DNA of 64,000 bases, from contig DATKMR010000014.1 in the NCBI GenBank assembly GCA_035541795.1, positions 214,029 through 278,028 of the forward strand. The letters run 5' to 3'. The notes under the pieces were generated by a model, which was not told the origin of the DNA, searched no databases, and was given only the letters and a program-made list of their open reading frames with translations. Each line of letters opens with the position of its first letter. Within the stretch, counting starts at the first letter, position 1. This stretch comes from Bacteroidales bacterium. GTDB taxonomy: Bacteria; Bacteroidota; Bacteroidia; Bacteroidales; VadinHA17. Shown here piece after piece: positions 4,734 through 25,161 of this stretch. Made by a program: the position numbers and the translations under genes.

Positions 4734-5603
4734 ATGAAAAACCAGCGAATATTTGCAATTGTACTGCTATTTGGATTAGGCCTGGCCTGTTACGGCCAGC
4801 AGGCACGGTTTAAAATATCTCTTGCCGAATGGTCTCTGCATCGTGCATTGATGAAAAAGGAAATATCAAATCTGGATTTTCCACGGATCGCGAAAAAGGA
4901 TTTCAATCTTGATGCAGTTGAATATGTATCAATTTTTTTTGCTGGAAGGGGGCAGGATTCCCTATACCTTTCCCAGCTAAAAGATTCCTGCGGAAAGTAC
5001 GGTGTTAAGAGTCTGCTGATAATGGTCGACGGCGAAGGAAACCTTGCAGATACATCCGCGGAAAGAAGGCAAAAGGCAGTCGAGAACCACTACAAATGGG
5101 TGAAAGCAGCTAAATTCCTGGGTTGCCATTCCATAAGGGTCAACGCGGCGGGGAGAGGTACTCCGGAACAGATGAAAGCCGCTGTAATAGAATCTCTTTC
5201 AAAGCTTTCCAGGTATGCCGGTGAATATAATATTAATGTTATTGTAGAGAATCACGGAGGCAATTCTTCTGTTGGGACCTGGCTTTCGGATGTGATGAAA
5301 AAAGTAAACATGCCAAATTGCGGCACCTTGCCCGATCTCGGGAACTTCTACGAATATGACAGGTACCAGGGTGTTACAGATATGATGCCATTTGCAAAGG
5401 GCGTCAGCGGGAAGACACACAATTTTGACGATAACGGCAATGAAACCCAGATCGATTATTCAAGGATGATCAGGATTGTGGCAGATGCCGGTTATAAAGG
5501 GTACATAGATGTGGAATACGAAGGGGATAAGCTGAGTGAGTATGACGGAATCAGGGCTTCGATTGCGCTTGTGCGGAAAGCTGTTGAACCTTACAATAAA
5601 TAA
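4734..5603 (+). CDS. Secreted sugar phosphate isomerase/epimerase (xylose isomerase-like TIM barrel)
   Basis: The track ORF starts at TTG 4647. ATG 4734 gives the signal peptide MKNQRIFAIVLLFGLGLACYGQ. The LAEWSLH, HSIRVN and VIVENHGG pattern is typical of AP-endonuclease-2/xylose-isomerase-like TIM barrels. Confidence 0.8.
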   Translation: MKNQRIFAIVLLFGLGLACYGQQARFKISLAEWSLHRALMKKEISNLDFPRIAKKDFNLDAVEYVSIFFAGRGQDSLYLSQLKDSCGKYGVKSLLIMVDGEGNLADTSAERRQKAVENHYKWVKAAKFLGCHSIRVNAAGRGTPEQMKAAVIESLSKLSRYAGEYNINVIVENHGGNSSVGTWLSDVMKKVNMPNCGTLPDLGNFYEYDRYQGVTDMMPFAKGVSGKTHNFDDNGNETQIDYSRMIRIVADAGYKGYIDVEYEGDKLSEYDGIRASIALVRKAVEPYNK

Positions 5604-5794
5604 GCGGTAATTTGGGGAAAGAATTTAAAGGTAAATGATTAGTTATGGCAGGAGTAAAGATATTTTTCTTTAAGGTTCTTATTTGGTTCATACTGGCAAT
5701 ACTGGCAGTAAGCGCATTAATTCGCGTGATCAAGAAGTGGAGTTAAGCTGAAAGTATGCCGATTTAGTTATCTTTGTCTTCTTATTGCTTGAAA

Positions 5795-10586: not shown

Positions 10587-11303
10587 TTACCCTCTCTTTT
10601 TGATCTCCTCGAGTAACCCGGGTTTTAATAGTATGATGTCTTTGTCGTGAAGTTCAATGATGCCGTCTTTTTCAAACGCTTTAAGCAGCTTTACCGCGCT
10701 CTCCATTGAAATTCCTGCAAAATCGGCAATGTCTTTTCTGCTTAGGTACTGGAATAAACTCTCATGTGATTTATTCAAACTATCTATATACAGCAAAGTC
10801 TCAGCAAGCCTTCCGTTCATCTGCCTGAAGAGCAATTTTCCCACCGTGTCAAGAAGGTTGGTGTTTTGCTCGCAGTATTTCCTGATTATTCCGTACGCGA
10901 ACATTGCATTCTGCTTGACAAGCGTCGCTATTGCATCTTTCTCAATAAGGTAGGCCTGGCAATCAGTCATGGCAACAGAGGAATAATTGAAAATATTAGT
11001 GTTAAATACGGCCGAGAGCCCAACAAACTCACCGGGAATGATAATCTTCAGATTAAAGTCCCTGTTCCCTTCCCCTTCAAGATACTGCCTTGCATATCCA
11101 TTGATAACAAATAAGATATAGGATGCAAAAGCTCCCTGCTTAGTAAGATTCTCACCTTTTCTGAAAAGGACCTGAGTTTTACTTCCCTTTACAAGATCCG
11201 CCTCTTCGTGTTGCAGATTCTGAAAGCACGGTGCTTTTATATCACAAAAAAAATCGTTATCTGCTTCCAGTATGGTCCTCATATATTCTGAATAATCCGA
11301 CAA
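10587..11303 (-). CDS. Crp/Fnr family transcriptional regulator
   Basis: 238 aa with an N-terminal cNMP-binding-like beta-barrel (FRKGENL...GE) and a C-terminal HTH (RKDIADFAGISMESAVKLLKAFEKDGII). Confidence 0.85.
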   Translation of the reverse strand: MSDYSEYMRTILEADNDFFCDIKAPCFQNLQHEEADLVKGSKTQVLFRKGENLTKQGAFASYILFVINGYARQYLEGEGNRDFNLKIIIPGEFVGLSAVFNTNIFNYSSVAMTDCQAYLIEKDAIATLVKQNAMFAYGIIRKYCEQNTNLLDTVGKLLFRQMNGRLAETLLYIDSLNKSHESLFQYLSRKDIADFAGISMESAVKLLKAFEKDGIIELHDKDIILLKPGLLEEIKKRG

Positions 11304-11428: not shown

Positions 11429-11785
11429 ATGTTGTACACAAATCTAAATCATCTGGAATCGGCATCTGATCATCAGAAGGCTGTTAACCAGAACGAAAAT
11501 GTAATGGTTATATGCGGAAGAATGGGTCCAATGTGCATACCTGTCTATGGCATTGCTGAAGAACTTGAAAAAGAATATAACCATGTCAAATTCTTCGATA
11601 TGGAATTTGATAATCCTGAATCTCATGTTATACGCAACCTTCCAGAAGTAAGAAACTTCATGGGTATTCCTTTTACAATTTACTATAAGAATGGCAAAGT
11701 AGTAAAAGCCACCTCAAGCATCCAGACGAAAGAGCAGGTAAGGACAATCCTCGATAAGGAGTTCTCTGCAACTGTGAATGTATAA
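11429..11785 (+). CDS. Thioredoxin-fold protein with an atypical active-site region
   Basis: Trx-like layout (VMVICGRMGPMCIPV....GIPFTIYYKNGK), but CGRMGPMC replaces WCGPC. ATG 11429 is preferred over the upstream start. The 3' end overlaps the next gene by 8 nt. Confidence 0.65.
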   Translation: MLYTNLNHLESASDHQKAVNQNENVMVICGRMGPMCIPVYGIAEELEKEYNHVKFFDMEFDNPESHVIRNLPEVRNFMGIPFTIYYKNGKVVKATSSIQTKEQVRTILDKEFSATVNV

Positions 11786-12749
11786 TGAAAAGGAGAAAAT
11801 GGATCATTTTGATGCTGTAATAATAGGCGCAGGACCGGCAGGTCTTACTGCAGGTATTTATCTCTCCAGGGCCAGGATGAAGACTCTCATTCTCGATGAA
11901 GGGATAACGGGAGGACAGATGGTGCTGACCCATGAGATTGCCAACTATCCAGGTGTTGAAAGCATCAGCGGGTTCCAGCTTGCCGGAATAATGAAAAAAC
12001 AGGCACTGGGATTCGGGTGTGAACTCAGGTCAAATATTTCAATAATTAGGATTGATCTTGAAAATAAAAGAAAGAAGATATCCCTCACAGACGGTTCTCA
12101 ATACTCGGCAGATTCGGTAATACTGGCTCCGGGCGGACGGCCAAGAACACTTGGTGTACCGGGTGAAAATGAGCTGAAAGGAAAGGGAATATCATATTGT
12201 GCCACCTGCGACGGCGATTTTTTTACCGGCAAGGAGATCATTGTGGTCGGCGGAGGAAATTCTGCACTTGAAGAAGCTGTATCGCTGACAAAATATGCGT
12301 CCAAAGTAACGGTTGTCCATCAGTTTGATCGCTTCCAGGCATTTGAGCACGCAATTGAAGAAGCCAGGAGCAATGCCAGGATAGATTTTATAATGGAATC
12401 AACTGTAGCAGGTTTTCATGGCTTTGAGAAGCTGGAAATGGCTGAAATCAAAAATCTCAGGACTGGAGAGATAACAAACAGGAGAATTGATGGCACATTT
12501 ATTTTCATCGGCTATATCCCCAACACGGAGTTCCTGGAAGGAATCATCAAACTGAACAGGAGAGGTGAAATTCCAGTCAGCGGGTCAGTGCAGACGGCCG
12601 TTGAAGGAGTTTATGCAGCTGGTGATTGTACAGCAAAACAGTACAGGCAGGTTACAACGGCTGTGGCGGACGGGACAATTGCAGCGCTTGCTGCATCAGA
12701 ATATGTCAACCAGATTAAAACATCGAGTAAAAAACTGATGGAGGCTTAA
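11778..12749 (+). CDS. Thioredoxin reductase-like flavoprotein (low-Mr TrxR family), probably not NADPH-dependent
   Basis: GAGPAG FAD motif, redox-active CATCDG and GGGNSALEEA. The HRRDxFRA NADPH 2'-phosphate motif reads HQFDRFQA here (encoded at 12318-12341). The true start may be MDHFDAV at 11799. Confidence 0.85.
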   Translation: MYNEKEKMDHFDAVIIGAGPAGLTAGIYLSRARMKTLILDEGITGGQMVLTHEIANYPGVESISGFQLAGIMKKQALGFGCELRSNISIIRIDLENKRKKISLTDGSQYSADSVILAPGGRPRTLGVPGENELKGKGISYCATCDGDFFTGKEIIVVGGGNSALEEAVSLTKYASKVTVVHQFDRFQAFEHAIEEARSNARIDFIMESTVAGFHGFEKLEMAEIKNLRTGEITNRRIDGTFIFIGYIPNTEFLEGIIKLNRRGEIPVSGSVQTAVEGVYAAGDCTAKQYRQVTTAVADGTIAALAASEYVNQIKTSSKKLMEA

Positions 12750-12750
12750 T

Positions 12751-13167
12751 ATGAAGATTACTTATATTATCGCAATTGTGGTGGTGTTTTTCGCCGGATA
12801 TTTCATTTACTCTTTCAGGAAAATGAAGAATATCCCCATGGTTGAGAACAGCGACAGGATATTGGAACTGACTGACAAGAATTTCCAGCTCCAGGTTAAG
12901 AGTAATATCACACTTGTCGATTTCTGGGCATCCTGGTGTGTACCATGCAAAATGATGGCACCGGTGCTGAATGAAGTTGCAGATGAAGTACCTGGTAATG
13001 TCAAGGTATGCAAGGTCAATGTTGAACAGTACCGGTCCCTGGCATCGAAATATTCGATTAGGGGAATCCCTACAATTGTTCTGTTCAGTGACGGGAAAGA
13101 AGTTGACAGGATAGTAGGTGTGAAAACCAAGGATTTTATCATTAACAGAATCAATAAAGTAAAATGA
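12751..13167 (+). CDS. Membrane-anchored thioredoxin
   Basis: An N-terminal TM helix (IIAIVVVFFAGYFIYSF) followed by a canonical Trx domain with WCVPC and GIPT. The stop overlaps the next start (ATGA at 13164-13167). Confidence 0.85.
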   Translation: MKITYIIAIVVVFFAGYFIYSFRKMKNIPMVENSDRILELTDKNFQLQVKSNITLVDFWASWCVPCKMMAPVLNEVADEVPGNVKVCKVNVEQYRSLASKYSIRGIPTIVLFSDGKEVDRIVGVKTKDFIINRINKVK

Positions 13168-14180
13168 CTGCAATTCTGATAGGTTTAGCATTTGGATCAA
13201 TACTCCGGTACGCGAAACTTAACCGTTTTGATACTATCAGCGGCCTGGCAATTCTCGGGGACCTCACGGTGGCAAAGGCATTAGCTGCAGCAGTCGGACT
13301 GGGAGCCATACTCGTGGCAGTTGAGACTGTTACCGGGCTTGGTTCATTCCATCTTAAACCCGTCATCCTTGGTGGATTGGTAATTGGAGGGATTGTATTT
13401 GGTACCGGGATGGCAATTCTGGGATATTGCCCGGGAACAATGGCTGTTTCTCTGGGTGAGGGATCAATAGATGCCCTGGCTGGCATAGCCGGAGGATTGG
13501 CAGGCGGGCTTGTTTACACGCTTTCATTCCCGGTTATTAAGAGCCTTGCAAACCCTGACCTGGGAAGCATTTCACTATTCAGCCTTCTGGGAAACAGCAG
13601 GCCTCTCTATTTGATAGCAACCCTGATCATCGGATCCTTGTTTATTGTGCTTGCTTTCAGATTGAAAGGCAGGGTGAACAATTCCGGGAAGAGATGGCTA
13701 TATGCTGGAATAGCCCTTGCAGCATTAAATGTGTTTGTTAATCTTTCATTTGTGGCTAACCATTTTATAGGTGCTTCAACTGCTTATCCAATGGTTGCCG
13801 ATTTTGTGACCGGTTTTACAGGTAATCCCTATTTTGAAAAGATAAAAGAACCCGGAACATGGGAACTGGAATTCCTTGGAGGAGCATTTCTTTCAGGACT
13901 TATTCTTTCAATTTCCAGTAAAGAATTCAGGATAACCACACTCCACAGTAACTGGATCAGGTTCAAAGGAAAGTCACCCCTGAACAGAATTTTATGGTCA
14001 TTTGCAGGTGGATTCCTGTTGCTCTTCGGCGCCAGGATGGCAGGTGGGTGCACAAGCGGACATATACTTTCAGGTGGGATGCAGCTTTCAGTCAGCAGCC
14101 TGGTATTCACAGTTTTTGTCTTTACTGGACTTGTTTTAACCGGGAAACTATTTTATAATCAGAAAGATGTAATTAAATAA
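13164..14180 (+). CDS. YeeE/YedE family sulfur-compound transporter (full-length, two-repeat form)
   Basis: 338 aa polytopic protein with the conserved Cys-containing motifs GYCPGT and GGCTSGH typical of YeeE/YedE. Confidence 0.85.
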   Translation: MTAILIGLAFGSILRYAKLNRFDTISGLAILGDLTVAKALAAAVGLGAILVAVETVTGLGSFHLKPVILGGLVIGGIVFGTGMAILGYCPGTMAVSLGEGSIDALAGIAGGLAGGLVYTLSFPVIKSLANPDLGSISLFSLLGNSRPLYLIATLIIGSLFIVLAFRLKGRVNNSGKRWLYAGIALAALNVFVNLSFVANHFIGASTAYPMVADFVTGFTGNPYFEKIKEPGTWELEFLGGAFLSGLILSISSKEFRITTLHSNWIRFKGKSPLNRILWSFAGGFLLLFGARMAGGCTSGHILSGGMQLSVSSLVFTVFVFTGLVLTGKLFYNQKDVIK

Positions 14181-14208
14181 TAATTCAACTTACTAAAAAA
14201 TCGAAATT

Positions 14209-14418
14209 ATGAAAAAGAACATGGGCAATCTCGACAGGATTCTGAGAGTTGTAGTTGCAATCGTAATTGCAGTTTTATTCTTCACAAAGGTTATAAGCGG
14301 AACATTGGGGATTATTCTCATGGTTATCGGAGGAGTATTCCTGCTAACAAGTATAATCAGCGTATGTCCCTTATATTACCCGTTTGGGATTAATACAAAA
14401 AAGAAAGAGGGAGCGTAG
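14209..14418 (+). CDS. DUF2892 (YgaP-like 2-TM) protein
   Basis: 69 aa. MGNLDRILRVVVA...two TM helices...CPLYYPFGINT matches the DUF2892 pattern as I remember it. Confidence 0.7.
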   Translation: MKKNMGNLDRILRVVVAIVIAVLFFTKVISGTLGIILMVIGGVFLLTSIISVCPLYYPFGINTKKKEGA

Positions 14419-14498
14419 CGGATTCTGTTGTAAATAAATTAAAAATGAGCCATCTGCTTGATATTGAATGAAAAAAGCGGATGTGATCTTGAATAACT

Positions 14499-14535
14499 GC
14501 TCCCGGTGATTTCAGCGATACCGGGAGCTTTTATT
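14499..14535 (+). terminator. Rho-independent terminator after the trx-yeeE-DUF2892 operon
   Basis: A 9-bp perfect stem GCTCCCGGT (14499-14507) / ACCGGGAGC (14520-14528) followed by TTTTATT. Confidence 0.65.
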
Positions 14536-14598
14536 GCTCTGCCAATTTAAAGACCGTGCATTTATCTTGTATTCATCTGTTGTGATACGCCTTGTAAT

Positions 14599-14623
14599 AT
14601 GAACATTTGTTCATTATATTTGT
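14599..14623 (+). promoter_or_regulatory. Operator palindrome ATGAACA-TT-TGTTCAT fused to a TATATTTG -7 box (promoter of the DUF134-nifX-arsR operon)
   Basis: ATGAACATTTGTTCATTATATTTGT lies 14 nt upstream of ATG 14637. A 24/25 identical copy lies on the minus strand at 17924-17948. TATATTTG fits the Bacteroides -7 consensus TAnnTTTG. Confidence 0.55.
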
Positions 14624-14636
14624 CAAAAATATTCGT

Positions 14637-15032
14637 ATGTCCCGGAATAAAAAGGACAGGTTGGTTCAGAAGGCGCCTAGTTTTTTCGGATTTAAGCCAC
14701 TTGGTCTCCAGGGTAAGCAATCAGAGGCGGTGATTCTTGGATTTGAGGAATACGAAGCCTTGAATCTGTGTGATTATGAGCTTCTAAAGCAGGCCGAAGC
14801 TGCCCTTTTGATGAATATCTCCAGACCCACCTTTACAAGAATTTATGAAAGTGCCAGGCGAAAAGTCGCAAGGGCCCTGGTTGAAGGAAAGCCCATTCGG
14901 TTTGCAAACGGGAACTCGTCAGTTGCTGAATGGTACATCTGTAACAGCTGTCGCATCAGTTTTACTCTGGCAGGGAAGGGAACACTTTGTTGTCCGGTTT
15001 GCAAATCCGGTGATATAATTCTTAACACATGA
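14637..15032 (+). CDS. DUF134 family putative DNA-binding protein with a C-terminal CxxC...CxxC zinc ribbon
   Basis: KAPSFFGFKPLG....VILGFEEYEALNLCDYELLKQAEAALLMNISRPTFTRIYESARRKVARALVEGK matches the DUF134 (sigma-70 region-4-like HTH) pattern. The tail reads CNSC...CCPVC. ATG 14637 is preferred over TTG 14607. Confidence 0.75.
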   Translation: MSRNKKDRLVQKAPSFFGFKPLGLQGKQSEAVILGFEEYEALNLCDYELLKQAEAALLMNISRPTFTRIYESARRKVARALVEGKPIRFANGNSSVAEWYICNSCRISFTLAGKGTLCCPVCKSGDIILNT

Positions 15033-15036
15033 TGTG

Positions 15037-15348
15037 ATGATTGTTGCAATTGCAGCCTCCGAAAACCACAAGAAATCCGTAATCGATTTGCATTTTGGAA
15101 GATGTGAATGGTATTGCCTTTTTAATTCAATCACAGGTGATCTAGAATTTATTGAGAATTCATTCAGATTTAAAAAGGATCAGGCTGGCCTTGATGCCGC
15201 TAAAATGCTTATAGCCAGGGGAGCTGGTATAATTGTGGCTGGACGTTTCGGGGCTAAGGTCATGGAAGTCCTTCGTGAAAACAACATTCAGATGGTTGTT
15301 CCGCAAACACGGCAGGATATTTCGAAGTTCTTAAATTCATTCAGATGA
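15037..15348 (+). CDS. NifB/NifX-type (dinitrogenase FeMo-cofactor-binding domain) protein
   Basis: IVAIAAS.....VIDLHFGRCEWYCLF...GAGIIVAGRFGAKV is typical of the small NifX/NifB C-terminal domain family. The start is GTG 15034 or ATG 15037. Confidence 0.75.
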   Translation: MIVAIAASENHKKSVIDLHFGRCEWYCLFNSITGDLEFIENSFRFKKDQAGLDAAKMLIARGAGIIVAGRFGAKVMEVLRENNIQMVVPQTRQDISKFLNSFR

Positions 15349-15686
15349 ATCAGTTAACAGAAAATTCTTATCCCAATTCTTTACCGGAAGTGAATGAATA
15401 CGAGAAATTCAGCGAAACACTCAAGGCACTATCTCATCCGGTAAGGTTGAAAATAATGCAGCTGCTGCTGAGCGACAAGATTTGTGTCAACGAAATTGTA
15501 AAAAGGCTGGACGTACCTCAATCAATTATCTCCCAGCATCTTTCAATTCTAAGAAACAGGGGGATATTAGTCAGGCAAAAAAAGGGTACCAGAACATGGT
15601 ACATGATCAGTGATGACCTGGCAATGGTAATTACAAATTTTCTGAACGGGAGGGATGAATCACGTTATAAACTGAAAAGTTACTGA
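15345..15686 (+). CDS. ArsR/SmtB family transcriptional regulator
   Basis: Winged HTH LKALSHPVRLKIMQLLLSDKICVNEIVKRLDVPQSIISQHLSILRNRGIL. It has a single Cys and no alpha-5 His/Asp metal-site pattern. The start overlaps the preceding stop (ATGA). Confidence 0.85.
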   Translation: MNQLTENSYPNSLPEVNEYEKFSETLKALSHPVRLKIMQLLLSDKICVNEIVKRLDVPQSIISQHLSILRNRGILVRQKKGTRTWYMISDDLAMVITNFLNGRDESRYKLKSY

Positions 15687-15690
15687 ATTC

Positions 15691-17466
15691 TCAGTGTGCC
15701 GGATCCGGTAACGTGGTCATCAGACCGGCTTTATCCCTTACCAGCTTAATTATTCCAGCGATTATTAGCTCCTCGTTTTCTGCGGAAATATCAAAAATAT
15801 ATACATTTCCGGTATTCCATTTCCTGGTAACACGGTCTAAAAGCTTCTTTCTGACAACCCACAGCTGAGTAACCGTCGAATATAAACATAATCTCTCTAT
15901 TGCATGATACCATCCTTTCCCGCTAAGCTCAAGCGGGCCAATCTCATCAATTACAATAAGCTGCTTATCCTTTGAGTTTTCAGGGTCAAGAATATGGGAG
16001 CCTGTATTTATGGTTTCGGGATTGAAAGAATATTTTCCTGTTTTTATACCATAACCTCTGCCTTCTGTTGAGCATAATTCGTATTGCTCAGCAGTATCGA
16101 TGTCATATAGCCTGAATCCAACCCTTCCCTTATCATTGTTTACTCCCGGTGACAAAAATCCTCCAACCCGGAAATTTTCTTCTTTCAGGCGCAAAACTGT
16201 CTTGTTGGCCAGTGTTGTCTTCCCCTGGTGGATCTCTCCGGTTATAATAATAATTTCCGGCCTTTTAAAGTGTTCCTTTTTAAATAAGTCAAGCAGGATA
16301 TCAGCCTTGCTGAGAAGACCCTTTAAAGAACTGCGAGAAATGCCGGAAGCGCTATTTTCTTTCCGTTCAGATAAACTGGACAGGAGAAAAGGGAGTGCGG
16401 AAAATGCAAGATCCAGCGACTGGTAAACCGATTCTAACCCATTGCGAAATAATATCGATTTGATTACCGGGTTCTTTAGTTCAATGCTGATGGCTGAGAA
16501 TCCAAGAACAAGGATTACCGCCCTGGCATTCATCTTTAAACCAACCAGTAACCCTGGCATACTGAAATATTCCCCGGTGGAAACTCCTTCCCATAAAAAT
16601 GCCGCGCAGAATGTAATTATTATAAAACTCAGCCAGAATTTAATCTTCAGCAGTCTTCTTATTGACCTGCTGTATTTTAAATAGCTGAAAAGAACATAGC
16701 AAATTCCTGCAAGTACAGCCGCGATTGTAAGATCTGAATTGATTAGGGTAAGTGTTCCTGTAATAAATAAGATATTTACTGTCAGCAGGATAAGTGAGTA
16801 CTTTTCGCCTGGAGCCGGGCCCTTCTTTATCCTGTTCCCTGACTGGAAGTTAAAGTCCAATTCCTGATCCCGACTGGAATCTTCTTTTGAGAATCCCCTT
16901 CCTGAGAGATAACCTGAAATAGCGCCGGCAATTCCTATAGCCGAATAGAACAGGACAATGATCAGCAAAACCATTAAAGGACTTACGCCGCGGATACTGA
17001 TCTGTTTTGAAACAAAATGATAGAGGTCAGTAACTATCTTCACCAGGTCGAAGCCGTACAGAATTAGCAGGTTGACTGTTTTTTGAATCAGTGTGCTCAG
17101 TACTGCAAAGATGCCGCCAATGATATAACCGAGAAGGTTCCTGCCAAAGATAAATATGAAAACCTGCATCAGGATTGCCTCTGCAAGTATGCCAATCATT
17201 GGCCCAAGGATTATTGCACTCGGCGATACAGCTTTCATCATGGCACATATAAGCCCTGACCTCCAGACAAGACCAGGTTCTTTCCAAACCTGAAGAAATG
17301 AAACGATCAGCCATACACTAATGAATGACAGAATCAAACCTGTAAAAGGGATTTTCAGGTTATGCAGGAAACTTCCCAGGACAATCTCCACCGAGGCCCA
17401 GATTGATCCTGTAACAGCCGATTTAAGCCATATTTCTTTTAAAGGTCTTGATGGTACAAGCTGCAT
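15691..17466 (-). CDS. Fusion protein: polytopic membrane domain (about 400 aa) plus C-terminal P-loop NTPase (THEP1/DUF2478-like)
   Basis: About 10 hydrophobic helices, then IIIITGEIHQGKTT (Walker A) and LIVIDEIGPLE (Walker B). The size and order resemble the NTPase_1/DUF2478 family as I remember it. Confidence 0.7.
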   Translation of the reverse strand: MQLVPSRPLKEIWLKSAVTGSIWASVEIVLGSFLHNLKIPFTGLILSFISVWLIVSFLQVWKEPGLVWRSGLICAMMKAVSPSAIILGPMIGILAEAILMQVFIFIFGRNLLGYIIGGIFAVLSTLIQKTVNLLILYGFDLVKIVTDLYHFVSKQISIRGVSPLMVLLIIVLFYSAIGIAGAISGYLSGRGFSKEDSSRDQELDFNFQSGNRIKKGPAPGEKYSLILLTVNILFITGTLTLINSDLTIAAVLAGICYVLFSYLKYSRSIRRLLKIKFWLSFIIITFCAAFLWEGVSTGEYFSMPGLLVGLKMNARAVILVLGFSAISIELKNPVIKSILFRNGLESVYQSLDLAFSALPFLLSSLSERKENSASGISRSSLKGLLSKADILLDLFKKEHFKRPEIIIITGEIHQGKTTLANKTVLRLKEENFRVGGFLSPGVNNDKGRVGFRLYDIDTAEQYELCSTEGRGYGIKTGKYSFNPETINTGSHILDPENSKDKQLIVIDEIGPLELSGKGWYHAIERLCLYSTVTQLWVVRKKLLDRVTRKWNTGNVYIFDISAENEELIIAGIIKLVRDKAGLMTTLPDPAH

Positions 17467-17489
17467 TCAGAATCAGAGTCAATTATTGT

Positions 17490-17873
17490 TTAACCGTGAT
17501 GACATGTATGTTCTCCGGGTGAATGGGAATGGTGATGATCGCATGTACTTCCGCTGTCTTCAACCGAGCCTTCGATGTATTTTCTGACTACTTCTTCCGC
17601 CCTGCCGGAACAGCCTTTTATGACTTCAATACCATTATTATTCAGAACATTGACTGCACCGACACCTATTCCGCCGGCAAGCATTACACTGACTCCAAAA
17701 GAAGCAAGCCGGGGTGCAATATCAGATTTACATCCGCATCCGGCGGGCGATTTAATCGTATTTACTTCCACAATCTCATTGGTTTCGGAGAGCGAATATA
17801 CTGCATAGGAATCACAATGACCGAAATGCGTATCCACCAGTTTGTCGTAGGTTACGGGAACTGCTATTTTCAT
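17490..17873 (-). CDS. NifB/NifX-type domain protein with a His/Cys-rich C-terminal tail
   Basis: MKIAVPV....HFGHCDSYAVY...GVSVMLAGGIGVGAV is the NifX-like core. The tail reads CDHHHSHSPGEHTCHHG. Confidence 0.75.
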   Translation of the reverse strand: MKIAVPVTYDKLVDTHFGHCDSYAVYSLSETNEIVEVNTIKSPAGCGCKSDIAPRLASFGVSVMLAGGIGVGAVNVLNNNGIEVIKGCSGRAEEVVRKYIEGSVEDSGSTCDHHHSHSPGEHTCHHG

Positions 17874-17923
17874 AACTTATTATAATTTGAATAAAACTGT
17901 TTAATACAAGAACAAAATCCGAT

Positions 17924-17948
17924 ACAAATATAATGAACATATGTTCAT
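17924..17948 (-). promoter_or_regulatory. Second copy of the operator plus -7 box module (promoter of the nifX-His / membrane-NTPase operon)
   Basis: The minus strand reads ATGAACATATGTTCATTATATTTGT, with a perfect 16-bp palindrome ATGAACATATGTTCAT at 17933-17948. It lies 50 nt upstream of the start at 17873. Confidence 0.55.
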
Positions 17949-18066
17949 AATGTTTGCGCAAAATATGTTCTTTATCATTTGCCTTATCCTGACAAACCTA
18001 TGGCATTTTAAGAATTAGAGCTTAAATTGCCTCCACCTGTCATAACTGTGACTACATGCACTTAAT

Positions 18067-18086
18067 AATGTGATATGTATCACATT
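18067..18086 (+). promoter_or_regulatory. Perfect CRP/FNR-type palindrome AATGTGATA-TG-TATCACATT (TGTGA-N6-TCACA)
   Basis: Read directly: TGTGA at 18069-18073 and TCACA at 18080-18084. A TACATTTG (-7-like) box follows at 18106-18113. The molybdoenzyme start is at 18268. Confidence 0.45.
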
Positions 18087-18267
18087 CTGAAACTATCCCA
18101 ATAAATACATTTGAATCAAGTATAAAACAAGTTTCCCTTGATGTGACATAATTATTTCTGGTCAGTTAATATATTGATTTATAATGCATAAACTGACAAC
18201 TTGATGTTGCACGGTAAACCTGGCAGAAATTTAAATTTCAAAATACCTGAAAAGTTTCAGAAAAACG

Positions 18268-20505
18268 ATGACAAACAGGAGACAATTTATTAAGATTTCG
18301 GTGGCCGGAGCAGGATTTATGGCAACAGGTGCCGGTACAATGAAGGCCATGGAATTGATCTCTCAGCCGGGGAATACCGGCAGCCTGAATCTTGATCTAA
18401 AGAGAACCCCTACCTATTGTGAGGTTTGTTTCTGGAAATGCGCTGGCTGGGTATATAAAAAATCCAACGGAAAAATCTGGAAGATAATTGGGAATGACCA
18501 GGACCAGCATTGTAACGGCAGGCTGTGCCCGAGGGGAACCGGAGGTGTCGGAATGTATAATGATAACGAGAGATTAAGGACACCGCTGCTAAGGACAGCA
18601 GAAAGGGGAAAACAAATTTTCAGGGAAGCAACCTGGGATGAAGCTTTTGACTACATCGCGGGAAGGATGAAGGAAATATCAGTAAAATACGGGCCATCTT
18701 CAATGGCTCTGTTCACTCATGGTTCCGGGAGCTCATATTTTACAACACTTCTTAAAGCTTATGGCTCCGAGAATATTGCGGAACCATCTTATGCCCAGTG
18801 CAGGGGACCGAGGGATGATGCCTTTTTTGCAACCTTTGGCGAGGAAGCCTATTCTCCTGAAATAACTGACATAAGGAATACAAAGTGCCTTGTTCTCATT
18901 GGGTCACACATAGGAGAAAATATGCATAACGGTCAGATACAGGAAATGTCCGATGCCATTGATAACGGAGCTACGATAATTACTGTTGACCCAAGATTTT
19001 CAACTGCTGCAGGCAAATCGAAGTACTGGCTGCCGATTAAGCCATCGACAGACATCGCGCTGCTGCTGGCCTGGATGCACGAGATTATATATAATGAATA
19101 CTACGATAAAAAGTATGTGGATAAATATTGCACGGGGTTTGATCAGTTAAGGGAACATGTGAAAAATTTCACTGCTGAGTGGGCTTATGGAATAACAACA
19201 ATCAGTCCCGACAAAATCAAACGTACAGCCAAAGAAATGGCAAGCGCAGCACCTGCAGTCATAGTTCATCCGGGACGCCATGTAACCTGGTATGGCGATG
19301 ATACCCAGAGAATCAGGGCTATTGCAATACTAAATGCCTTACTGGGTTCGTGGGGTCGAAGGGGGGGATTCTACAGGCCATCAAAAGCATCGGTGCCAGG
19401 ATATAAATTGCCTGGATTTCCAAAACCATCCAGGACATGGCAGGATGCTTTTCCCGGCAAGTTTCCGATAGCCAGTTCGCCGGTTTCAAATGTGCTCATC
19501 GATGCCTCGATCCCGGAAAATAATCCGGGTTATCTGGTAAAGGGATGGATTGTAAACGGCACTAACCTTATCTCGACTATTCCTAACCAGGCAAATACAA
19601 TAAAAGCTATTCAGAATCTGGAACTACTGGTTGCAATTGACACAATGCCCATGGAGATAACTGGTTGGGCTGATGTTGTATTACCTGAATGCACATATCT
19701 TGAAAGGTATGACAGCCTGAGAATCAGCCCGCACAGGAAACCTTCCATCGCTTTAAGAATGCAATCGACTGAACCTTTGAATCAAACCAGGCCGGGTTAC
19801 TGGATTGCCAGGCAATTATCATTGAAGCTTGGGCTTGAAAGCTATTTTCCGTTTGAAAAACAGGAAGATTTGCTCGACTGGCAGTTAAAACAGGTTAAGT
19901 CATCGCTTGAGGAAATGCAAAGTCTTGGGGTTAAAAACTTTGAAAGGGAAGCCGATGACCTGTACTTTGCAGAGGATGAAAATGTGCAATTTCCTACTGA
20001 TTCAGGCAGGATAGAGCTGTTCTCAAAATCTCTTGAAGCCGCAGGTTTTGATGCAATGCCAAAATATACTGCTCATGAGGAGCCACAGGACGGCTATTAC
20101 AGGCTTATCTATGGCAGGGCACCAATGCATACTTTCAGCAGAACATCAAATAACCCCAATCTCACGGACCTTATGCATGAGAACAGCGTCTGGATTAACC
20201 CAAAAGTCGCGAAGGAATGGAGTCTTGTCACTGGACAGTATATATGGCTTAAGAATCAGGATGGAGTCACTACCGATTTTCCAATAAAAGTGAGGGTCAC
20301 TGAAAGAATTAGGTGGGATTCGGTTTATATGGTCCATGGATTCGGGCATAAGCAAAAACAAATGAAGAGATGCTTCGGAAAGGGGGCGAGCGATACACAA
20401 ATGATAACAAAAGTTCTTTACGATCCGCTGATGGGCGGAACCGGAATGAGATCGAATTTTGTAACGTTTGTAACAGAGAATGCAGGGAAGGAGGTATCAT
20501 TATGA
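18268..20505 (+). CDS. Tat-exported molybdopterin (bis-MGD) oxidoreductase catalytic subunit, PsrA/PhsA-like
   Basis: Tat leader MTNRRQFIKISVAGAGFMATGAG, an N-terminal FeS motif CEVCFWKC...C....C, and DMSO-reductase-family length and motifs. The stop overlaps the next start (ATGA 20502-20505). Confidence 0.9.
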   Translation: MTNRRQFIKISVAGAGFMATGAGTMKAMELISQPGNTGSLNLDLKRTPTYCEVCFWKCAGWVYKKSNGKIWKIIGNDQDQHCNGRLCPRGTGGVGMYNDNERLRTPLLRTAERGKQIFREATWDEAFDYIAGRMKEISVKYGPSSMALFTHGSGSSYFTTLLKAYGSENIAEPSYAQCRGPRDDAFFATFGEEAYSPEITDIRNTKCLVLIGSHIGENMHNGQIQEMSDAIDNGATIITVDPRFSTAAGKSKYWLPIKPSTDIALLLAWMHEIIYNEYYDKKYVDKYCTGFDQLREHVKNFTAEWAYGITTISPDKIKRTAKEMASAAPAVIVHPGRHVTWYGDDTQRIRAIAILNALLGSWGRRGGFYRPSKASVPGYKLPGFPKPSRTWQDAFPGKFPIASSPVSNVLIDASIPENNPGYLVKGWIVNGTNLISTIPNQANTIKAIQNLELLVAIDTMPMEITGWADVVLPECTYLERYDSLRISPHRKPSIALRMQSTEPLNQTRPGYWIARQLSLKLGLESYFPFEKQEDLLDWQLKQVKSSLEEMQSLGVKNFEREADDLYFAEDENVQFPTDSGRIELFSKSLEAAGFDAMPKYTAHEEPQDGYYRLIYGRAPMHTFSRTSNNPNLTDLMHENSVWINPKVAKEWSLVTGQYIWLKNQDGVTTDFPIKVRVTERIRWDSVYMVHGFGHKQKQMKRCFGKGASDTQMITKVLYDPLMGGTGMRSNFVTFVTENAGKEVSL

Positions 20506-21035
20506 GATATGCAATGGCAGTTGATACCAGGAAATGTGTGGGATGCAGCGATTGTGTTGTAGCCTGCCAGACTGAAAACAATGTACCATCAGGATTCAGC
20601 CGCGACTGGGTGGTGGAGAGGCTTAACGGGACGTATCCCCAGCTTGAAATTGAATTAAGATCGGAAAGATGCAACCATTGTAATAATGCTCCTTGTGTCC
20701 GTTGCTGCCCGACGGGAGCAAGTCATTTTGCTGAAGGTGGAATTATTCTCGTTAATCATTCAAAATGCATCGGCTGTGGAGCTTGTATTTCTGCCTGCCC
20801 TTATGATGCAAGGTACCCGCATCCCGATGGCTATGTCGATAAATGCACATTCTGTAACCATCGCCTTAAAAATGGGCTTAGCACCGCATGCGCTGATGTT
20901 TGTCCGACAAAATGCATCTACTTTGGCGATTTGGATGACCCTAACAGTTCAGTAACCATGATCCTGAAGCGGAGGAAGTATAAGACACTTATTCCTGAAG
21001 CAGGTACAGATCCGAGACTCTATTTTCTCATTTAA
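20502..21035 (+). CDS. 4Fe-4S ferredoxin-type electron-transfer subunit, PsrB/PhsB-like
   Basis: Four Cys clusters (CVGCSDCVVAC, CNHCNNAPCVRCC, CIGCGACISAC, CTFC....C..VC). I take the start at MRYAMAVD; the track's upstream extension from 20370 overlaps psrA. Confidence 0.9.
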   Translation: MRYAMAVDTRKCVGCSDCVVACQTENNVPSGFSRDWVVERLNGTYPQLEIELRSERCNHCNNAPCVRCCPTGASHFAEGGIILVNHSKCIGCGACISACPYDARYPHPDGYVDKCTFCNHRLKNGLSTACADVCPTKCIYFGDLDDPNSSVTMILKRRKYKTLIPEAGTDPRLYFLI

Positions 21036-21056
21036 AACTCCATAATACGGAATAAC

Positions 21057-21998
21057 ATGAACGAAGAATTAATAGTCAGTGGCAGAAATAACCTGATGGT
21101 GGACCCGCACCTTAACATCTGGCACTGGCCAATTCCTCTCTATCTCTTTCTCGGTGGAATGGCTGCTGGGATACTGGCAATAGCAGCCATATATTATATC
21201 AGGGGAAGAGAGGAGGATTACAAAGCTGCTGTGAGGATTACTCCGATGCTGGCTCCTTTTCTGCTTGTTCTCGGACTGCTTGCATTGTTTCTGGACCTCA
21301 GGCACAAAGCCTATTTCTGGCAATTGTATGTGAATATTAAGCTGCAGTCACCCATGTCGTGGGGTGCCTGGGTACTGATGGTAATCACCCCCGTCTCATT
21401 TATATGGGCAGCGTTGCACATAAGGGAACTGTTCCCAAGATGGGACTGGAAATACAGTGTGCTTTACTCTGTCGAAAAGTTCTTCATCAGGTATAAGAAA
21501 ATACTGGCCTGGGTTATGCTGATTTACGCATTAGTACTAGGTATCTATACAGGAATTTTGTTATCAGCATTCAATGCACGGCCGTTCTGGAACACTTCAA
21601 TTCTGGGGCCCTTATTCCTGGCATCCGGACTTTCGGCAGGTGCCGCTGCAACCCTGATAATATCAAAAAATACTGATGAAAGAAAACAGTTCGCGAGGAT
21701 AGACCTCGTACTGATAGGGATTGAATTATTCCTGATCATTCACATGTTTATGGGATTCCTGGCAAGTACACAGGTTCAGATTGATGCGGCTAACATGTTC
21801 CTCGGTGGCCCTTATACTACAGTGTTCTGGATATTTGTTGTTATCATGGGAATGCTAATCCCTGCATTGCTTGAAGTTCTGGAATTAAGGAAATACCACA
21901 TTCCTGCTATTTTGCCGGCAATACTTGTAATCTTCGGCAGTTTCATGCTGAGATTCATTATAGTATTTGCAGGTCAGGCAAGCCGGTGGCTATATTGA
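21057..21998 (+). CDS. NrfD/PsrC-type quinol-interacting membrane subunit
   Basis: 313 aa with about 8 TM helices, in the typical position after the A and B subunits. Confidence 0.85.
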   Translation: MNEELIVSGRNNLMVDPHLNIWHWPIPLYLFLGGMAAGILAIAAIYYIRGREEDYKAAVRITPMLAPFLLVLGLLALFLDLRHKAYFWQLYVNIKLQSPMSWGAWVLMVITPVSFIWAALHIRELFPRWDWKYSVLYSVEKFFIRYKKILAWVMLIYALVLGIYTGILLSAFNARPFWNTSILGPLFLASGLSAGAAATLIISKNTDERKQFARIDLVLIGIELFLIIHMFMGFLASTQVQIDAANMFLGGPYTTVFWIFVVIMGMLIPALLEVLELRKYHIPAILPAILVIFGSFMLRFIIVFAGQASRWLY

Positions 21999-22039
21999 AA
22001 ATCACTGATCGGGAAAATTATTTTATAATAAACCTAAAT

Positions 22040-22561
22040 ATGGAAGTTAAGAAAATAAAATACCTTAATCCCTATGTAGGAGGGGTATTATTAGGTCTGG
22101 TCTTGCTGGCTGCCAATTTTGTTTCGGGCAGAGGGCTTGGGGCAAGCGGTGCAATTAAAAGCGTGGTTGTAACCACCATGACGACGGTAGCTCCGCATGC
22201 GGGAGAAAACTCGGGATTTGTCAGGGAATTCCACCAGTCCCATCAGGGAAACCCGATGAAAACCTGGCTGGTATTCGAAATGCTTGGAGTTCTTGTTGGT
22301 GGATTTCTTTCAGGGACATTAGCAGGAAGACTTAAATTCAAAGTTGAGCATTCACCGAAAATAACCTCAGGAAGAAGGCTTGTCCTTGCTCTGGGAGGCG
22401 GTGTTCTATTTGGATTCGGATCCCAGCTGGGGAGAGGCTGTACCAGCGGATCAGCCCTCAGCGGAATGGCAGTGCTTTCACTTGGGGGATTTATTACAAT
22501 GATGGCAATATTCGGCACGGCCTTTGCCTTCGCATATTTCTTCAGAAAAAACTGGATTTAA
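22040..22561 (+). CDS. YeeE/YedE family protein (half-size, first of a split pair)
   Basis: GRGCTSGSALSG motif and 4 TM helices. ATG 22040 is preferred over the upstream start. Confidence 0.8.
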   Translation: MEVKKIKYLNPYVGGVLLGLVLLAANFVSGRGLGASGAIKSVVVTTMTTVAPHAGENSGFVREFHQSHQGNPMKTWLVFEMLGVLVGGFLSGTLAGRLKFKVEHSPKITSGRRLVLALGGGVLFGFGSQLGRGCTSGSALSGMAVLSLGGFITMMAIFGTAFAFAYFFRKNWI

Positions 22562-22574
22562 AAATAAATTGAAT

Positions 22575-23165
22575 ATGGGACCACTAGTTGCAAATGATAT
22601 AATATCAGAAAACACGAACCTGTTTCTGGCTTTTATTATAGGTATCGGGTTTGGTTTTGTTCTTGAGCAAAGCGGATTTTCTTCCAGTAAAAAGCTGGCC
22701 GGGGTTTTTTATGGATATGATACGGTAGTATTAAAAGTGTTCTTTACAGCTGCAATTACAGGAATGTTAGGTTTGCTTTTTTTCAGCCTCTTCGGTTGGA
22801 TTGACCTTAGCTCGGTTTACATCAACCCGACGTACCTGCCTTCTGCCATCCTTGGCGGCGTTATTATGGGGTTAGGCTTTATAATGGGTGGCTATTGCCC
22901 CGGCACAAGTTTTTGTGGAGCATCAATCGGTAAAATAGATGCCCTGGTTTTCATCGGGGGACTCTTTATCGGTGTATTTATCTTTGGTTTGGGATATAAA
23001 CTCTGGGAAGGCATCTATATGGCAAAGTTCATGGGCTCACCTAAAGTAAGTTCAGTTCTGGGTTTGTCCGACGGACTTTTTGCACTCCTGCTGATTATCG
23101 TTGCCCTGGTAATGTTCAGGGTCGCAGAGTGGGCTGAAAAAAAATACCCTGTTGAAGATTATTAG
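22575..23165 (+). CDS. YeeE/YedE family protein (half-size, second of a split pair)
   Basis: GGYCPGTSFCG motif and polytopic topology. ATG 22575 is preferred. Confidence 0.8.
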   Translation: MGPLVANDIISENTNLFLAFIIGIGFGFVLEQSGFSSSKKLAGVFYGYDTVVLKVFFTAAITGMLGLLFFSLFGWIDLSSVYINPTYLPSAILGGVIMGLGFIMGGYCPGTSFCGASIGKIDALVFIGGLFIGVFIFGLGYKLWEGIYMAKFMGSPKVSSVLGLSDGLFALLLIIVALVMFRVAEWAEKKYPVEDY

Positions 23166-23182
23166 AATTTAAAAATCATACT

Positions 23183-23806
23183 ATGAAACCACGTACATTA
23201 CTGGCATTATTTCTGATCCCTCTTGGACTTGTGATTGCTGCCGTGCCGCAGAATACAACCAGGCCTTATAAGCTGACTGCAGACCAGCTTCTTTCAGAAG
23301 TTAAAACCAGGACTCAGTATATTGCGCCTGAAACCGTTGCCGATATGCTTGTAAAGAAGGATCCGACTCTCAGGTTGGTTGATGTCAGGAGCCAGGATGA
23401 ATTTGAGAAATTCAGCCTTCCCGGGGCGGTTAATGTTCCTATACCTGACTTGTTAAATGACAAGTATACTGAGATTCTGAATCAGGATTCAAAGATGAAC
23501 GTCTTTTACTCCAACGGTACGATTACTGCAAATGAGGCATGGATGGTGACCCGTCAGTTGGGATATAAGAATAACTTTGTACTTGAAGGCGGACTCAACT
23601 ACTGGTTTGATGCAATTATGAATCCTCAGAAACCTGTATCTACAAGTGCGGATGAGGAGTTTGCAAAGTATGATTTCAGAAAGAGTGCCGGACAGGCCCT
23701 GGGCGGAGGAGGTGTGATTCAGGCTGAAAAGACACAGCCCGGTGCTGCTTCAAAGCCGACTGTAACGGCCGGGCCTAAGAAAAAGAAGGTAGCAGGCGGA
23801 TGTTGA
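23183..23806 (+). CDS. Membrane/periplasm-targeted rhodanese-homology-domain protein lacking the active-site Cys, with a Gly/Pro/Lys-rich tail ending in GGC
   Basis: N-terminal hydrophobic signal or anchor. The rhodanese pattern LVDVRSQDEFEKFSLPGAVNVP....VFYSNGTITANEAW...LEGGLNYW has Ser where the catalytic Cys sits. The only Cys in the protein is its last residue. Confidence 0.75.
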   Translation: MKPRTLLALFLIPLGLVIAAVPQNTTRPYKLTADQLLSEVKTRTQYIAPETVADMLVKKDPTLRLVDVRSQDEFEKFSLPGAVNVPIPDLLNDKYTEILNQDSKMNVFYSNGTITANEAWMVTRQLGYKNNFVLEGGLNYWFDAIMNPQKPVSTSADEEFAKYDFRKSAGQALGGGGVIQAEKTQPGAASKPTVTAGPKKKKVAGGC

Positions 23807-23819
23807 ATCAGAGATTCAT

Positions 23820-24410
23820 ATGTACGAGAACTTTTCAGGAATTATTCTGGCGGGCGGAGAAAACAAGAGATTTGACGGCATAATCAAATCTCTTTCTTAT
23901 ATTGATGGCAAACAGATTGTTAAAAGGATTATTCTGGTGTTGGAGCAATTGTTTCCTGAAATAATCATAGTAACAAATTTACCCGGGGAGTTCAGGGAAT
24001 TTTCCCGGTTTAAAATCGTAAGTGATAAGATCATTGGTAAGGGCCCTTTGGGTGGAATACACGCGGGTCTGGAGGCTGCTGCAAATGAGCTTTGTTTCGT
24101 TATTGCAGGTGACATGCCTTTCCCCGACAGGGATATCATTAAGGGTATGATAGATGAATTCTCTGATTCAGAACCTGAGTTGCTCATCCCGAAATTAGGA
24201 TCGGGAATTGAACCTTTGCACTCTATTTGGCAGCGTAAGATCAATCAGAAGCTAGAATCTTTCCTGCTTTCAGGAGACAGGAATGCAGTGCGGGATTTTA
24301 TAAAAACGGCGGATATTAAATATTATGAAATTCAGGAATCCGAATCAGCCAGAATTGCTTTTACCAATATCAATTACCTGAAAGATATTGTTTCACCGCA
24401 TAAATTTTAA
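23820..24410 (+). CDS. mobA: Molybdenum cofactor guanylyltransferase
   Basis: GIILAGGENKRF..., GPLGGIHAGL and AGDMPF motifs are typical of MobA. Confidence 0.8.
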   Translation: MYENFSGIILAGGENKRFDGIIKSLSYIDGKQIVKRIILVLEQLFPEIIIVTNLPGEFREFSRFKIVSDKIIGKGPLGGIHAGLEAAANELCFVIAGDMPFPDRDIIKGMIDEFSDSEPELLIPKLGSGIEPLHSIWQRKINQKLESFLLSGDRNAVRDFIKTADIKYYEIQESESARIAFTNINYLKDIVSPHKF

Positions 24411-24420
24411 ATGTTACTGA

Positions 24421-24450
24421 AGCCCGTAATCATTAACGGGTTCGTTTTTT
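24421..24450 (+). terminator. Probable intrinsic terminator after mobA
   Basis: Stem AGCCCGT / ACGGGTT (includes one G-T pair) followed by CGTTTTTT. Confidence 0.45.
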
Positions 24451-24483
24451 CAGGGATTGTTCTTCTTTTGCTAACTTTCGGCC

Positions 24484-25161
24484 ATGAAAAACGAATGCGG
24501 TGTTTGTACAATAAAGTCCAAGGCAGCGTCTAAACTGAATCCTGAAGAGACAGACAAACTTTCCATCAATTGTGCCCTGGTAAAGTTTGCAAAAGGGGAT
24601 TCGCTTATCAAACAGGGGACCTTTTCGACAAATGTTGCATACCTGAGAAGCGGGCTTGTAAAAATACATATCAGCGGACCCTATCATGAACAGATCGTCA
24701 GGATTGACAAGGCTCCCACATATCTGGGTTTACCCACGACCTTTGGAGACAAGATAAACCAGTACTCTGTAACGGTTATCGAGGAGGCTGAAGTTTGTTT
24801 CATTGATGTTGATGTATTCAGGTCTTTGCTCAGGACAAATCACGAGTTTTCTTACGAGATAATGCTTGAGTTATGCAGGAATGAACTTGAAGTGTTTAGC
24901 AGGTGTGCATGCAGGACTCAGAAGCAGATAAGGGGAAAAATGGCAGATCTCCTTCTCGAAATGGCCGATCGGATATATAAATCTGACAGGTTCAGGCTGC
25001 CACTCACACAGGAGGAGATTGGCAATCTCGTTGACTCCAGCAGGGAAAGCATAAGCAGGGTGCTCTCGGAATTTGACAGGGATAAGATCATTAAGATTCA
25101 GGGAAAGAAGATCGAGATTTTAAACAGAAAATCACTCTCCCTGATCAGCGCAAACGGCTAA
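24484..25161 (+). CDS. Crp/Fnr family transcriptional regulator (Cys-rich)
   Basis: cNMP-binding-like barrel plus C-terminal HTH (QEEIGNLVDSSRESISRVLSEFDRDKII). It has an N-terminal CGVC and further Cys residues (SRCAC). Confidence 0.85.
   Translation: MKNECGVCTIKSKAASKLNPEETDKLSINCALVKFAKGDSLIKQGTFSTNVAYLRSGLVKIHISGPYHEQIVRIDKAPTYLGLPTTFGDKINQYSVTVIEEAEVCFIDVDVFRSLLRTNHEFSYEIMLELCRNELEVFSRCACRTQKQIRGKMADLLLEMADRIYKSDRFRLPLTQEEIGNLVDSSRESISRVLSEFDRDKIIKIQGKKIEILNRKSLSLISANG

Follow-up and report, generated by a model that had tools for sequence, protein, structure and literature searches.

This analysis concerns a 64,000-nt stretch of DNA from an uncultured Bacteroidales bacterium (VadinHA17 lineage), called the window below, in which two convergent operons each start behind a 25-nt module made of a palindromic candidate operator fused to the -7 box of a predicted promoter. 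We propose that the DUF134/UPF0251 protein encoded behind the first module (14637–15032) probably represses both its own operon and the second one, which encodes a NifX-like protein with a Cys/His-rich tail (NifX-His) and a membrane NTPase, through this palindrome-promoter module. It is very probably this protein, and not the ArsR/SmtB-family regulator encoded in the same operon, that binds the palindrome. The proposal starts from a motif whose position, specificity, conservation throughout the phylum Bacteroidota and co-occurrence with DUF134 genes are directly observed.

Module 1 (ATGAACATTTGTTCATTATATTTGT) occupies the plus strand at 14599–14623 and module 2 (ATGAACATATGTTCATTATATTTGT) the minus strand at 17948–17924. 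Reading both strands confirmed what the first-pass annotation had reported, namely that the two copies are identical at 24 of 25 positions, with the sole mismatch at the centre of the dyad. Both are built from the 7-2-7 palindrome ATGAACA-NN-TGTTCAT directly abutting TATATTTG, which fits the -7 box TAnnTTTG of Bacteroidota sigma-A promoters, and the palindrome of module 2 is a perfect 16-mer. The left flanks of the two palindromes are gtaata and aacatt, respectively. Since the Bacteroidota -7 box spans positions -12 to -5 (PMC9723704), transcription is predicted to start at about 14627 and about 17920, which places the operators at approximately -28 to -13. This position is typical of repressors and implies occlusion of RNA polymerase. 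Module 1 lies 15 nt 5' of the DUF134 start codon (ATG at 14637). The promoter elements are as follows:

14599–14623, plus strand: module 1, with operator ATGAACATTTGTTCAT (14599–14614) and -7 box TATATTTG (14615–22); 57 related loci share this architecture.
17924–17948, minus strand: module 2, with the 16-bp palindrome ATGAACATATGTTCAT (17948–17933) and TATATTTG (17932–17925); an equivalent module precedes the orthologous operon in loci L209 and L004.
14591–14594, plus strand: candidate -33 element cTTG, 20 nt 5' of the -7 box of module 1, proposed from the family consensus TTTG at that distance.

The operon behind module 1 comprises the genes for DUF134, a NifX-like protein and ArsR, and the operon behind module 2, convergent with the first, comprises the NifX-His gene followed by that of a membrane NTPase_1 protein, a gene content that agrees with the first-pass annotation:

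14637–15032, plus strand: DUF134/UPF0251 protein, 131 aa (Pfam PF02001, 70.8 bits against a cut-off of 27).
15037–15348, plus strand: NifX-like protein 1 (Nitro_FeMo-Co domain), second gene of the operon; such a gene follows DUF134 in most related loci.
15345–15686, plus strand: ArsR/SmtB-family regulator, 113 aa; its start overlaps the stop of the NifX-like gene.
17490–17873, minus strand: NifX-His, NifX-like with a tail rich in Cys and His; opens the module 2 operon.
15691–17466, minus strand: 591-aa membrane protein, NTPase_1/DUF2478 domain at the C-terminus; follows NifX-His in the module 2 operon.

Allowing up to three mismatches, the 25-mer had no match in 100 dinucleotide-preserving shuffles as against three observed in the window, the third being the opposite strand of copy 2. 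Perfect TGAACAnnTGTTCA sites occur only twice in the window. With a weight matrix built from the related loci described below, the two window sites score 28.2 and 27.5 bits and the next-best position of the window 5.8 (for reference, the best of 20 shuffles reached 17.4 and the weakest training site 14.9), and the scan of the 64-kb window with this matrix found no further site and no second degenerate operator. TAnnTTTG alone is not enriched (56 observed versus 52.6 expected), so that the signal resides in the palindrome and in its invariable junction with the box. The chance-level frequency of the box taken by itself might speak for a generic promoter feature or a chance repeat without a dedicated regulator. 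Such an origin is most improbable, given the zero chance expectation of the 25-mer in the shuffles, the mere two sites in 64 kb, and the finding, detailed below, that 97 of 103 good sites in 800 kb of related DNA precede DUF134.

Conservation was assessed in two sets of loci. The first, chosen by protein, contains 80 loci from species-representative Bacteroidota genomes retrieved through alignment of DUF134 homologues (45–65% identity to the window protein), including Dysgonomonas, Parabacteroides, Bacteroides ihuae, Alistipes, Chitinophagaceae, Prolixibacteraceae and many uncultured genomes. In nearly all of them DUF134 is followed by one or two NifX-like genes without ArsR. The palindrome is present almost throughout the set already in the 120 nt before DUF134; it lies within 150 nt 5' of DUF134 in 74 of the 80 loci, and four of the other six have a perfect site further upstream. 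Sites with at most one mismatch number 97 in the 150 nt upstream of DUF134 versus 6 in the other ~790 kb of these loci. Thus, the palindrome is conserved before DUF134 in divergent genomes and rare elsewhere, which is the comparative pattern sought for an autoregulated repressor. Together with the two sites of the window, it bears out the earlier prediction of a small, specific, autoregulated regulon as opposed to a generic promoter feature.

The architecture of the sites is conserved as well. A distance of exactly 15 nt from the start of the palindrome to TAnnTTTG recurs in 57 loci, and in the consensus of these fused sites, aaaatTTg.aTtaTGAACATaTGTTCATTAt.TTTG, a -33 TTTG element stands 20 nt from the -7 box, so that the operator would fill the -33/-7 spacer. 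The promoter with an overlapping palindromic operator that had been suggested for the window is supported. A second palindrome is found 26–31 bp away in 33 loci, either upstream of the -33 element or over the transcription start, and free-standing copies show the symmetric extension aTTA-TGAACAnnTGTTCA-TAAt. Among Bacteroides spp., three loci (L013, L015 and L207) have the operator inside a near-perfect 38-bp palindrome, aggatttaattaTGAACA..TGTTCAtaattaaatcct, about 60 nt 5' of DUF134 and placed over the -33 region, not in the spacer. Sequence comparison thus indicates that the module is conserved across the Bacteroidota before DUF134 genes. The two window copies are nearly identical because both are near-consensus instances of this module, and a recent duplication is not required.

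The second set was chosen by motif, independently of any protein, in a metagenome scan for TGAACAnnTGTTCAYTAnnTTTG that yielded at least 120 loci with at least 124 modules; all counts given for this set apply among the matches listed. DUF134 is the first gene downstream of 63 of the 124 modules, the second gene in 3 cases and present elsewhere in the locus in 12. After clustering of near-identical contexts it comes first in 35 of 87, and for approximately 44% of the de-duplicated modules the DNA retrieved contains no DUF134. Other first genes encode DUF5320 proteins (17 of 124), NifX-like proteins (9), TonB-dependent receptors (5), and ferredoxin-like proteins, ARMT1-like proteins and Cys/Met pyridoxal phosphate enzymes (3 each), with single cases of a radical S-adenosylmethionine (SAM) protein, an HdrC-like protein, ZIP, an ArsM-like methyltransferase and cydA. 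The DUF5320 genes, whose products share the N-terminus MPRGD..GP.G..GYC (e.g., in L126, L120, L097, L117 and L125), are the second-commonest first gene, and in L189 one of them (5455–5697) lies between DUF134 and a NifX-like gene. DUF5320 thus appears to be another uncharacterised family drawn into the same regulon; a literature search for DUF5320 found nothing functional. Behind two of the single-case modules, the ArsM-like SAM methyltransferase of L168 (Cys-rich N-terminus ECCLSCGG) lies about 400 nt downstream and the cytochrome bd subunit I gene (cydA) of L173 about 280 nt downstream.

The share of modules without DUF134 is one of the points that favour an unlinked, widespread Bacteroidota regulator, for example of the Crp/Fnr family, which would bind the palindrome and have the DUF134 operons as its main targets. 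The PrfA box of Listeria, TTAACA-NN-TGTTAA, has the same geometry as the window palindrome, two Crp-family genes flank the region (10587–11303, minus strand, and 24484–25161, plus strand), and Crp-like genes are present in 11 of the 80 protein-chosen loci. We nevertheless regard such a regulator as unlikely. Crp-like genes occur in 2 of the 120 motif-chosen loci, whereas DUF134 is found near 78 of the 124 modules. About half of the modules directly precede the gene of one and the same DNA-binding protein, DUF134, as is classically seen with autoregulation. Crp-type activation does not operate from the -33/-7 spacer, and a separate perfect TGTGA-N6-TCACA site for a Crp-type factor is available at 18069–18084.

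The geometry also recalls an SOS (LexA) box, since GAAC-N4-GTTC is the core of the Cheo box of Gram-positive bacteria, and TGAACATATGTTCA contains GAACATATGTTC, the Cheo-type core. Both the Cheo box of Gram-positive LexA and the PrfA box of the Listeria Crp/Fnr protein are 14-bp palindromes of this geometry (CGAACATATGTTCG and TTAACANNTGTTAA), but they serve other regulators and regulons, and the PrfA box activates from -41.5 whereas the palindrome of the module lies in the spacer. The SOS repressors of Bacteroidetes bind GGA-N5-TCC or CTAA-N5-TTAG (PMC8565304), motifs that differ from the palindrome, and no repair or SOS gene is found among the genes downstream of the listed motif matches (DUF134, NifX-like, DUF5320); the LexA reading is thereby effectively ruled out.

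The first-pass annotation had attributed the palindrome to the ArsR protein encoded at 15345–15686, relying on the half-site core of the operators of SmtB/CzrA-type repressors. This core is accurate: the 12-2-12 operators of the SmtB/ArsR family contain TGAACA-NN-TGTTCA (e.g., AATACCTGAACA-GA-TGTTCAAGTATT; PMC8790569), exactly the 6-2-6 core found here. Binding by ArsR, alone or with DUF134 on a shared operator, could further be argued from the place of its gene in the module 1 operon, from the P0122 locus of another metagenome, where a 55%-identical ArsR is encoded in the same DUF134-NifX-ArsR arrangement, and from the ArsR-like genes divergent from DUF134 in L039, L189 and L202. The distribution of the motif, however, speaks against the attribution. 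The palindrome precedes DUF134 in 74–78 of the 80 protein-chosen loci, whereas ArsR-like open reading frames (ORFs) occur in 3 of these 80 and in 3 of the 120 motif-chosen loci, that is, in 6 of 200 module-bearing loci, and the ArsR gene of L189 heads an ordinary ars operon (ArsR, thioredoxin-like protein, arsenate reductase, permease) with its own promoter. The clade of the window ArsR is rare, with 10 matches in 5.8 billion proteins as against 643 for DUF134, and its members P0125 and P0127, which lie outside DUF134 operons, have no TGAACA palindrome within 5 kb. The outer 12-2-12 arms (AATAxx...xxTATT) are absent from the family of sites; instead, the core is adjoined by aTTA/TAAt flanks in free-standing sites and by the -7 box in fused ones. 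The P0125 and P0127 genes adjoin a thioredoxin gene (L203 and L205, around 4930–4990) with the AT-rich inverted repeat tagaaatatatatttataatatattcta upstream, a repeat that may represent the genuine operator type of the window ArsR and its relatives. A single Cys in helix alpha3 is conserved in this clade.

The layout closest to that of the window is found in L209 and L004, where DUF134 and a NifX-like gene stand behind a double operator and a second fused module (TGAACCAATGTTCATTATATTTG) precedes a convergent methyltransferase-OsmC-NifX-NTPase_1 operon. Both modules are kept in these loci, with neither an ArsR gene nor a remnant of one. Binding by ArsR is accordingly quite improbable in our judgement, and DUF134 is a far better candidate binder because the palindrome tracks DUF134 and not ArsR-like ORFs. 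The window ArsR appears to be a lineage-specific addition to the operon, unnecessary to explain the operator, although it could act as a second, additional binder of the shared core. At the position corresponding to the window ArsR, L209 has an uncalled stretch (6716–7360) whose minus strand encodes a fragment of an IS1595-like zinc-finger ORF; an ArsR pseudogene was considered for this gap, and none is there. The comparison suggests that genes have been gained and lost where the two convergent operons meet. The pairing of NifX-His with the membrane NTPase_1 protein is found in L209, L004 and the P0122 locus as well, and methyltransferase and OsmC genes head the second operon in L209 and in the P0122 locus.

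The preferred binder, DUF134, has the layout of a small DNA-binding protein, combining a basic arm at the N-terminus, a helix-turn-helix like that of sigma-70 region 4 and a C-terminal ribbon. In its AlphaFold (AF2) model, residues 1–26 (the basic arm) are disordered, the helices at 36–83 are confident (predicted local distance difference test, pLDDT, ~87–96), and the C-terminus forms a beta-ribbon with the invariant CxxC...CPxC. Foldseek matched the helices to sigma-70 region 4 (including structures bound to -35 DNA), to the operator-bound DeoR domain and to EnfR, and Pfam Sigma70_r4 matches one member of the DUF134 family. The search for solved structures found none of DUF134, and by sequence only marginal zinc-ribbon matches (2gmg, TRIM2). 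Of the 80 homologues, 77 share an identical recognition helix, VSRPTFTRIYE, while those of L006, L039 and L073 each have one conservative substitution, at the fifth or sixth position. On the sequence side, this invariance matches that of the half-site. The homologue search gave 643 matches in 5.8 billion proteins, and the DUF134/UPF0251 family comprises 3,303 cluster representatives at E <= 1e-3 (50% identity clusters) and is widespread in anaerobes.

A link between DUF134 and the second operon is provided by gene fusions. Proteins of ~270 residues in which DUF134 is joined to a zinc ribbon and to a Nitro_FeMo-Co domain ending in a His-rich tail are encoded in L094, L102, L105, L106, L110, L113, L182 and other metagenome loci, each fusion gene being preceded by the same module. 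The NifX domain of the fusions shows 51% identity to NifX-His of the window (17490–17873). The fusions therefore suggest that NifX-His works with DUF134 as its partner, plausibly as the cofactor-sensing part.

Taken together, we propose that each 25-mer would be a Bacteroidota sigma-A promoter whose -33/-7 spacer is occupied by a DUF134 operator. A DUF134 dimer would bind ATGAACA-NN-TGTTCAT through its sigma-70 region-4-like helix-turn-helix and block RNA polymerase, thereby repressing its own operon (DUF134, NifX-like, ArsR) and the NifX-His/membrane-NTPase operon. A signal, probably a metal-sulfur species, would relieve the repression, being perceived either by the C-terminal four-Cys ribbon of DUF134 or through NifX-His. 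That DUF134 is the binder, that it acts as a repressor and what it responds to are our inferences.

Several points weigh against this proposal, in addition to the SmtB-type core, the operon membership of ArsR and the P0122 arrangement discussed above. The association of the module with DUF134 is correlative, and the same pattern would result from an unlinked regulator acting on DUF134 operons in every case. The protein-chosen loci were conditioned on DUF134. The motif-chosen loci include redundant contigs and a few probable chance (intragenic) matches, and their query contains the -7 box and hence samples only Bacteroidota. Module 2 has CAAA at the -33 position and no TTTG, which a sigma-A promoter would have about 19–21 nt 5' of the -7 box. 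The AF2 model of DUF134 is of moderate overall confidence (mean pLDDT 74, predicted template-modelling score 0.50), and a literature search for DUF134, UPF0251 and PF02001 found no functional paper.

Both module-bearing operons are embedded in a sulfur-metabolism island (window positions 11778–14418 and 18268–25161). On one side it contains an operon for thioredoxin reductase (trxB), thioredoxin (trx), a YeeE-type sulfur transporter and a YgaP-like protein. On the far side of module 2 lies the operon of a PhsA-like molybdopterin oxidoreductase, resembling PhsABC-type thiosulfate/polysulfide reductases, with 4Fe-4S and NrfD proteins, two YeeE halves, a rhodanese and a MobA-like gene, along with a Crp gene. 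Between the first of these operons and promoter 1 there is one further feature:

14492–14535, plus strand: G+C-rich hairpin GCTCCCGGT / ACCGGGAGC followed by TTTTATT, terminator-like (arms 14492–14507 and 14520–14535, 88% complementary).

This hairpin is likely the intrinsic terminator of the trxB-trx-yeeE-ygaP operon, and promoter 1 would therefore be independent of that operon. The perfect CRP/FNR-type palindrome TGTGA-TATGTA-TCACA at 18069–18084 lies 22 nt 5' of the -7 box TACATTTG (18106–18113), its centre about 42 nt before the predicted start of the PhsA-like operon (ATG at 18268), and has the appearance of a class II activation site that is separate from the DUF134 module. Module 2 itself is part of a 32-bp near-palindrome (CAAATATAATGAACAT|ATGTTCATAATGTTTG, 17925–17956, 88% complementary), and a -7-like TAATGTTTG with one extra base flanks its operator on the plus strand, facing phsA some 310 nt away. 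This element could be a weak divergent promoter or merely reflect the symmetry of the site. Searches of 14300–18400 for structured RNAs and riboswitches gave no Rfam match at E <= 1, and a mobile-element or plasmid origin was set aside, with no match in the plasmid collection.

Among characterised systems, the operators of the SmtB/ArsR family (SmtB, ZiaR, AztR, AzuR, CzrA; PMC8790569) are similar in their identical 6-2-6 core, in the palindrome lying over the core promoter and in the logic of an autoregulated repressor. They differ in that their outer arms are not conserved here, in the co-occurrence of the palindrome with DUF134 rather than ArsR genes, and in that the local ArsR, which has one Cys, lacks the alpha5 His/Asp site and the alpha3N metal ligands. 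EnfR of Thermococcus onnurineus (TON_1525) is a small dimeric repressor of the Tfx family with a region-4-like helix-turn-helix and an N-terminal arm that contributes to DNA binding; its pseudo-palindromic site overlaps a metalloenzyme-cluster promoter (PMC10570040). It shares with DUF134 the sigma-70 region-4-like helix-turn-helix, as its Foldseek match to the model indicates, but there is no detectable sequence relationship, EnfR has an alpha+beta 'note-head' domain in place of the Cys4 ribbon, and its site is a 36-bp AT-rich repeat in an archaeon. Membership of EnfR in DUF134 was considered and rejected, EnfR belonging to the Tfx family. The best match of the DUF134 helix-turn-helix to an operator-bound repressor is DeoR of Bacillus subtilis (SorC family), with 35% identity over 40 residues and a root-mean-square deviation of 0.8–0.9 Å. 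Both would be repressors of a palindromic operator (as proposed for DUF134), although DeoR has a large sugar-phosphate-binding effector domain, no Cys4 ribbon, no basic N-terminal arm and an unrelated operator.

The gene content is reminiscent of the orange protein (ORP) genes of Desulfovibrio vulgaris, anaerobe-specific clusters that combine Nitro_FeMo-Co ('Di-Nase') proteins binding Fe-S or Mo-Cu-S with P-loop NTPases and are organised in two divergent co-regulated operons (PMC6345978). The NifX-like proteins of the window match the MrpORP model in its C-terminal domain. For regulation, the ORP operons use sigma-54 with the enhancer-binding protein DVU2106 (PMC4641369), whereas the palindrome described here would occlude the promoter, and the NTPase of the window is an NTPase_1/DUF2478 protein with a membrane domain, not Mrp/NBP35.

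An autoregulated repressor with a promoter-occluding operator is a known kind of system; for DUF134 the motif, the candidate regulon and the candidate partner are new. As a broader and tentative hypothesis, to which we give well below even chances, DUF134/UPF0251 might be a family of metal-sulfur-cluster-responsive repressors that recognise aTTATGAACAnnTGTTCATAAt in the -33/-7 spacer of Bacteroidota promoters. For cofactor sensing they would rely on a NifX-like domain rich in His and Cys, present as a fusion or as a separate protein whose gene is under that operator too. The regulon would comprise NifX-like, DUF5320, ferredoxin, NTPase and TonB-receptor genes, and an SmtB-like ArsR with the same core specificity would have been recruited as a second input in the lineage of the window. 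The case also carries a caution, since the likeness of a motif to that of a known family, here the SmtB core, can mislead even when a member of that family is encoded next door. For DUF134/UPF0251, a family without a characterised member, the analysis supplies the first DNA motif and a defined architecture of the promoter. It also yields a candidate regulon (NifX-like, DUF5320, ferredoxin, NTPase_1 and TonB receptors) and, through the domain-fusion link to NifX-His, a candidate partner. It thereby bears on the role of non-nitrogenase NifX-like and orange-protein-type proteins in gut and sediment anaerobes.

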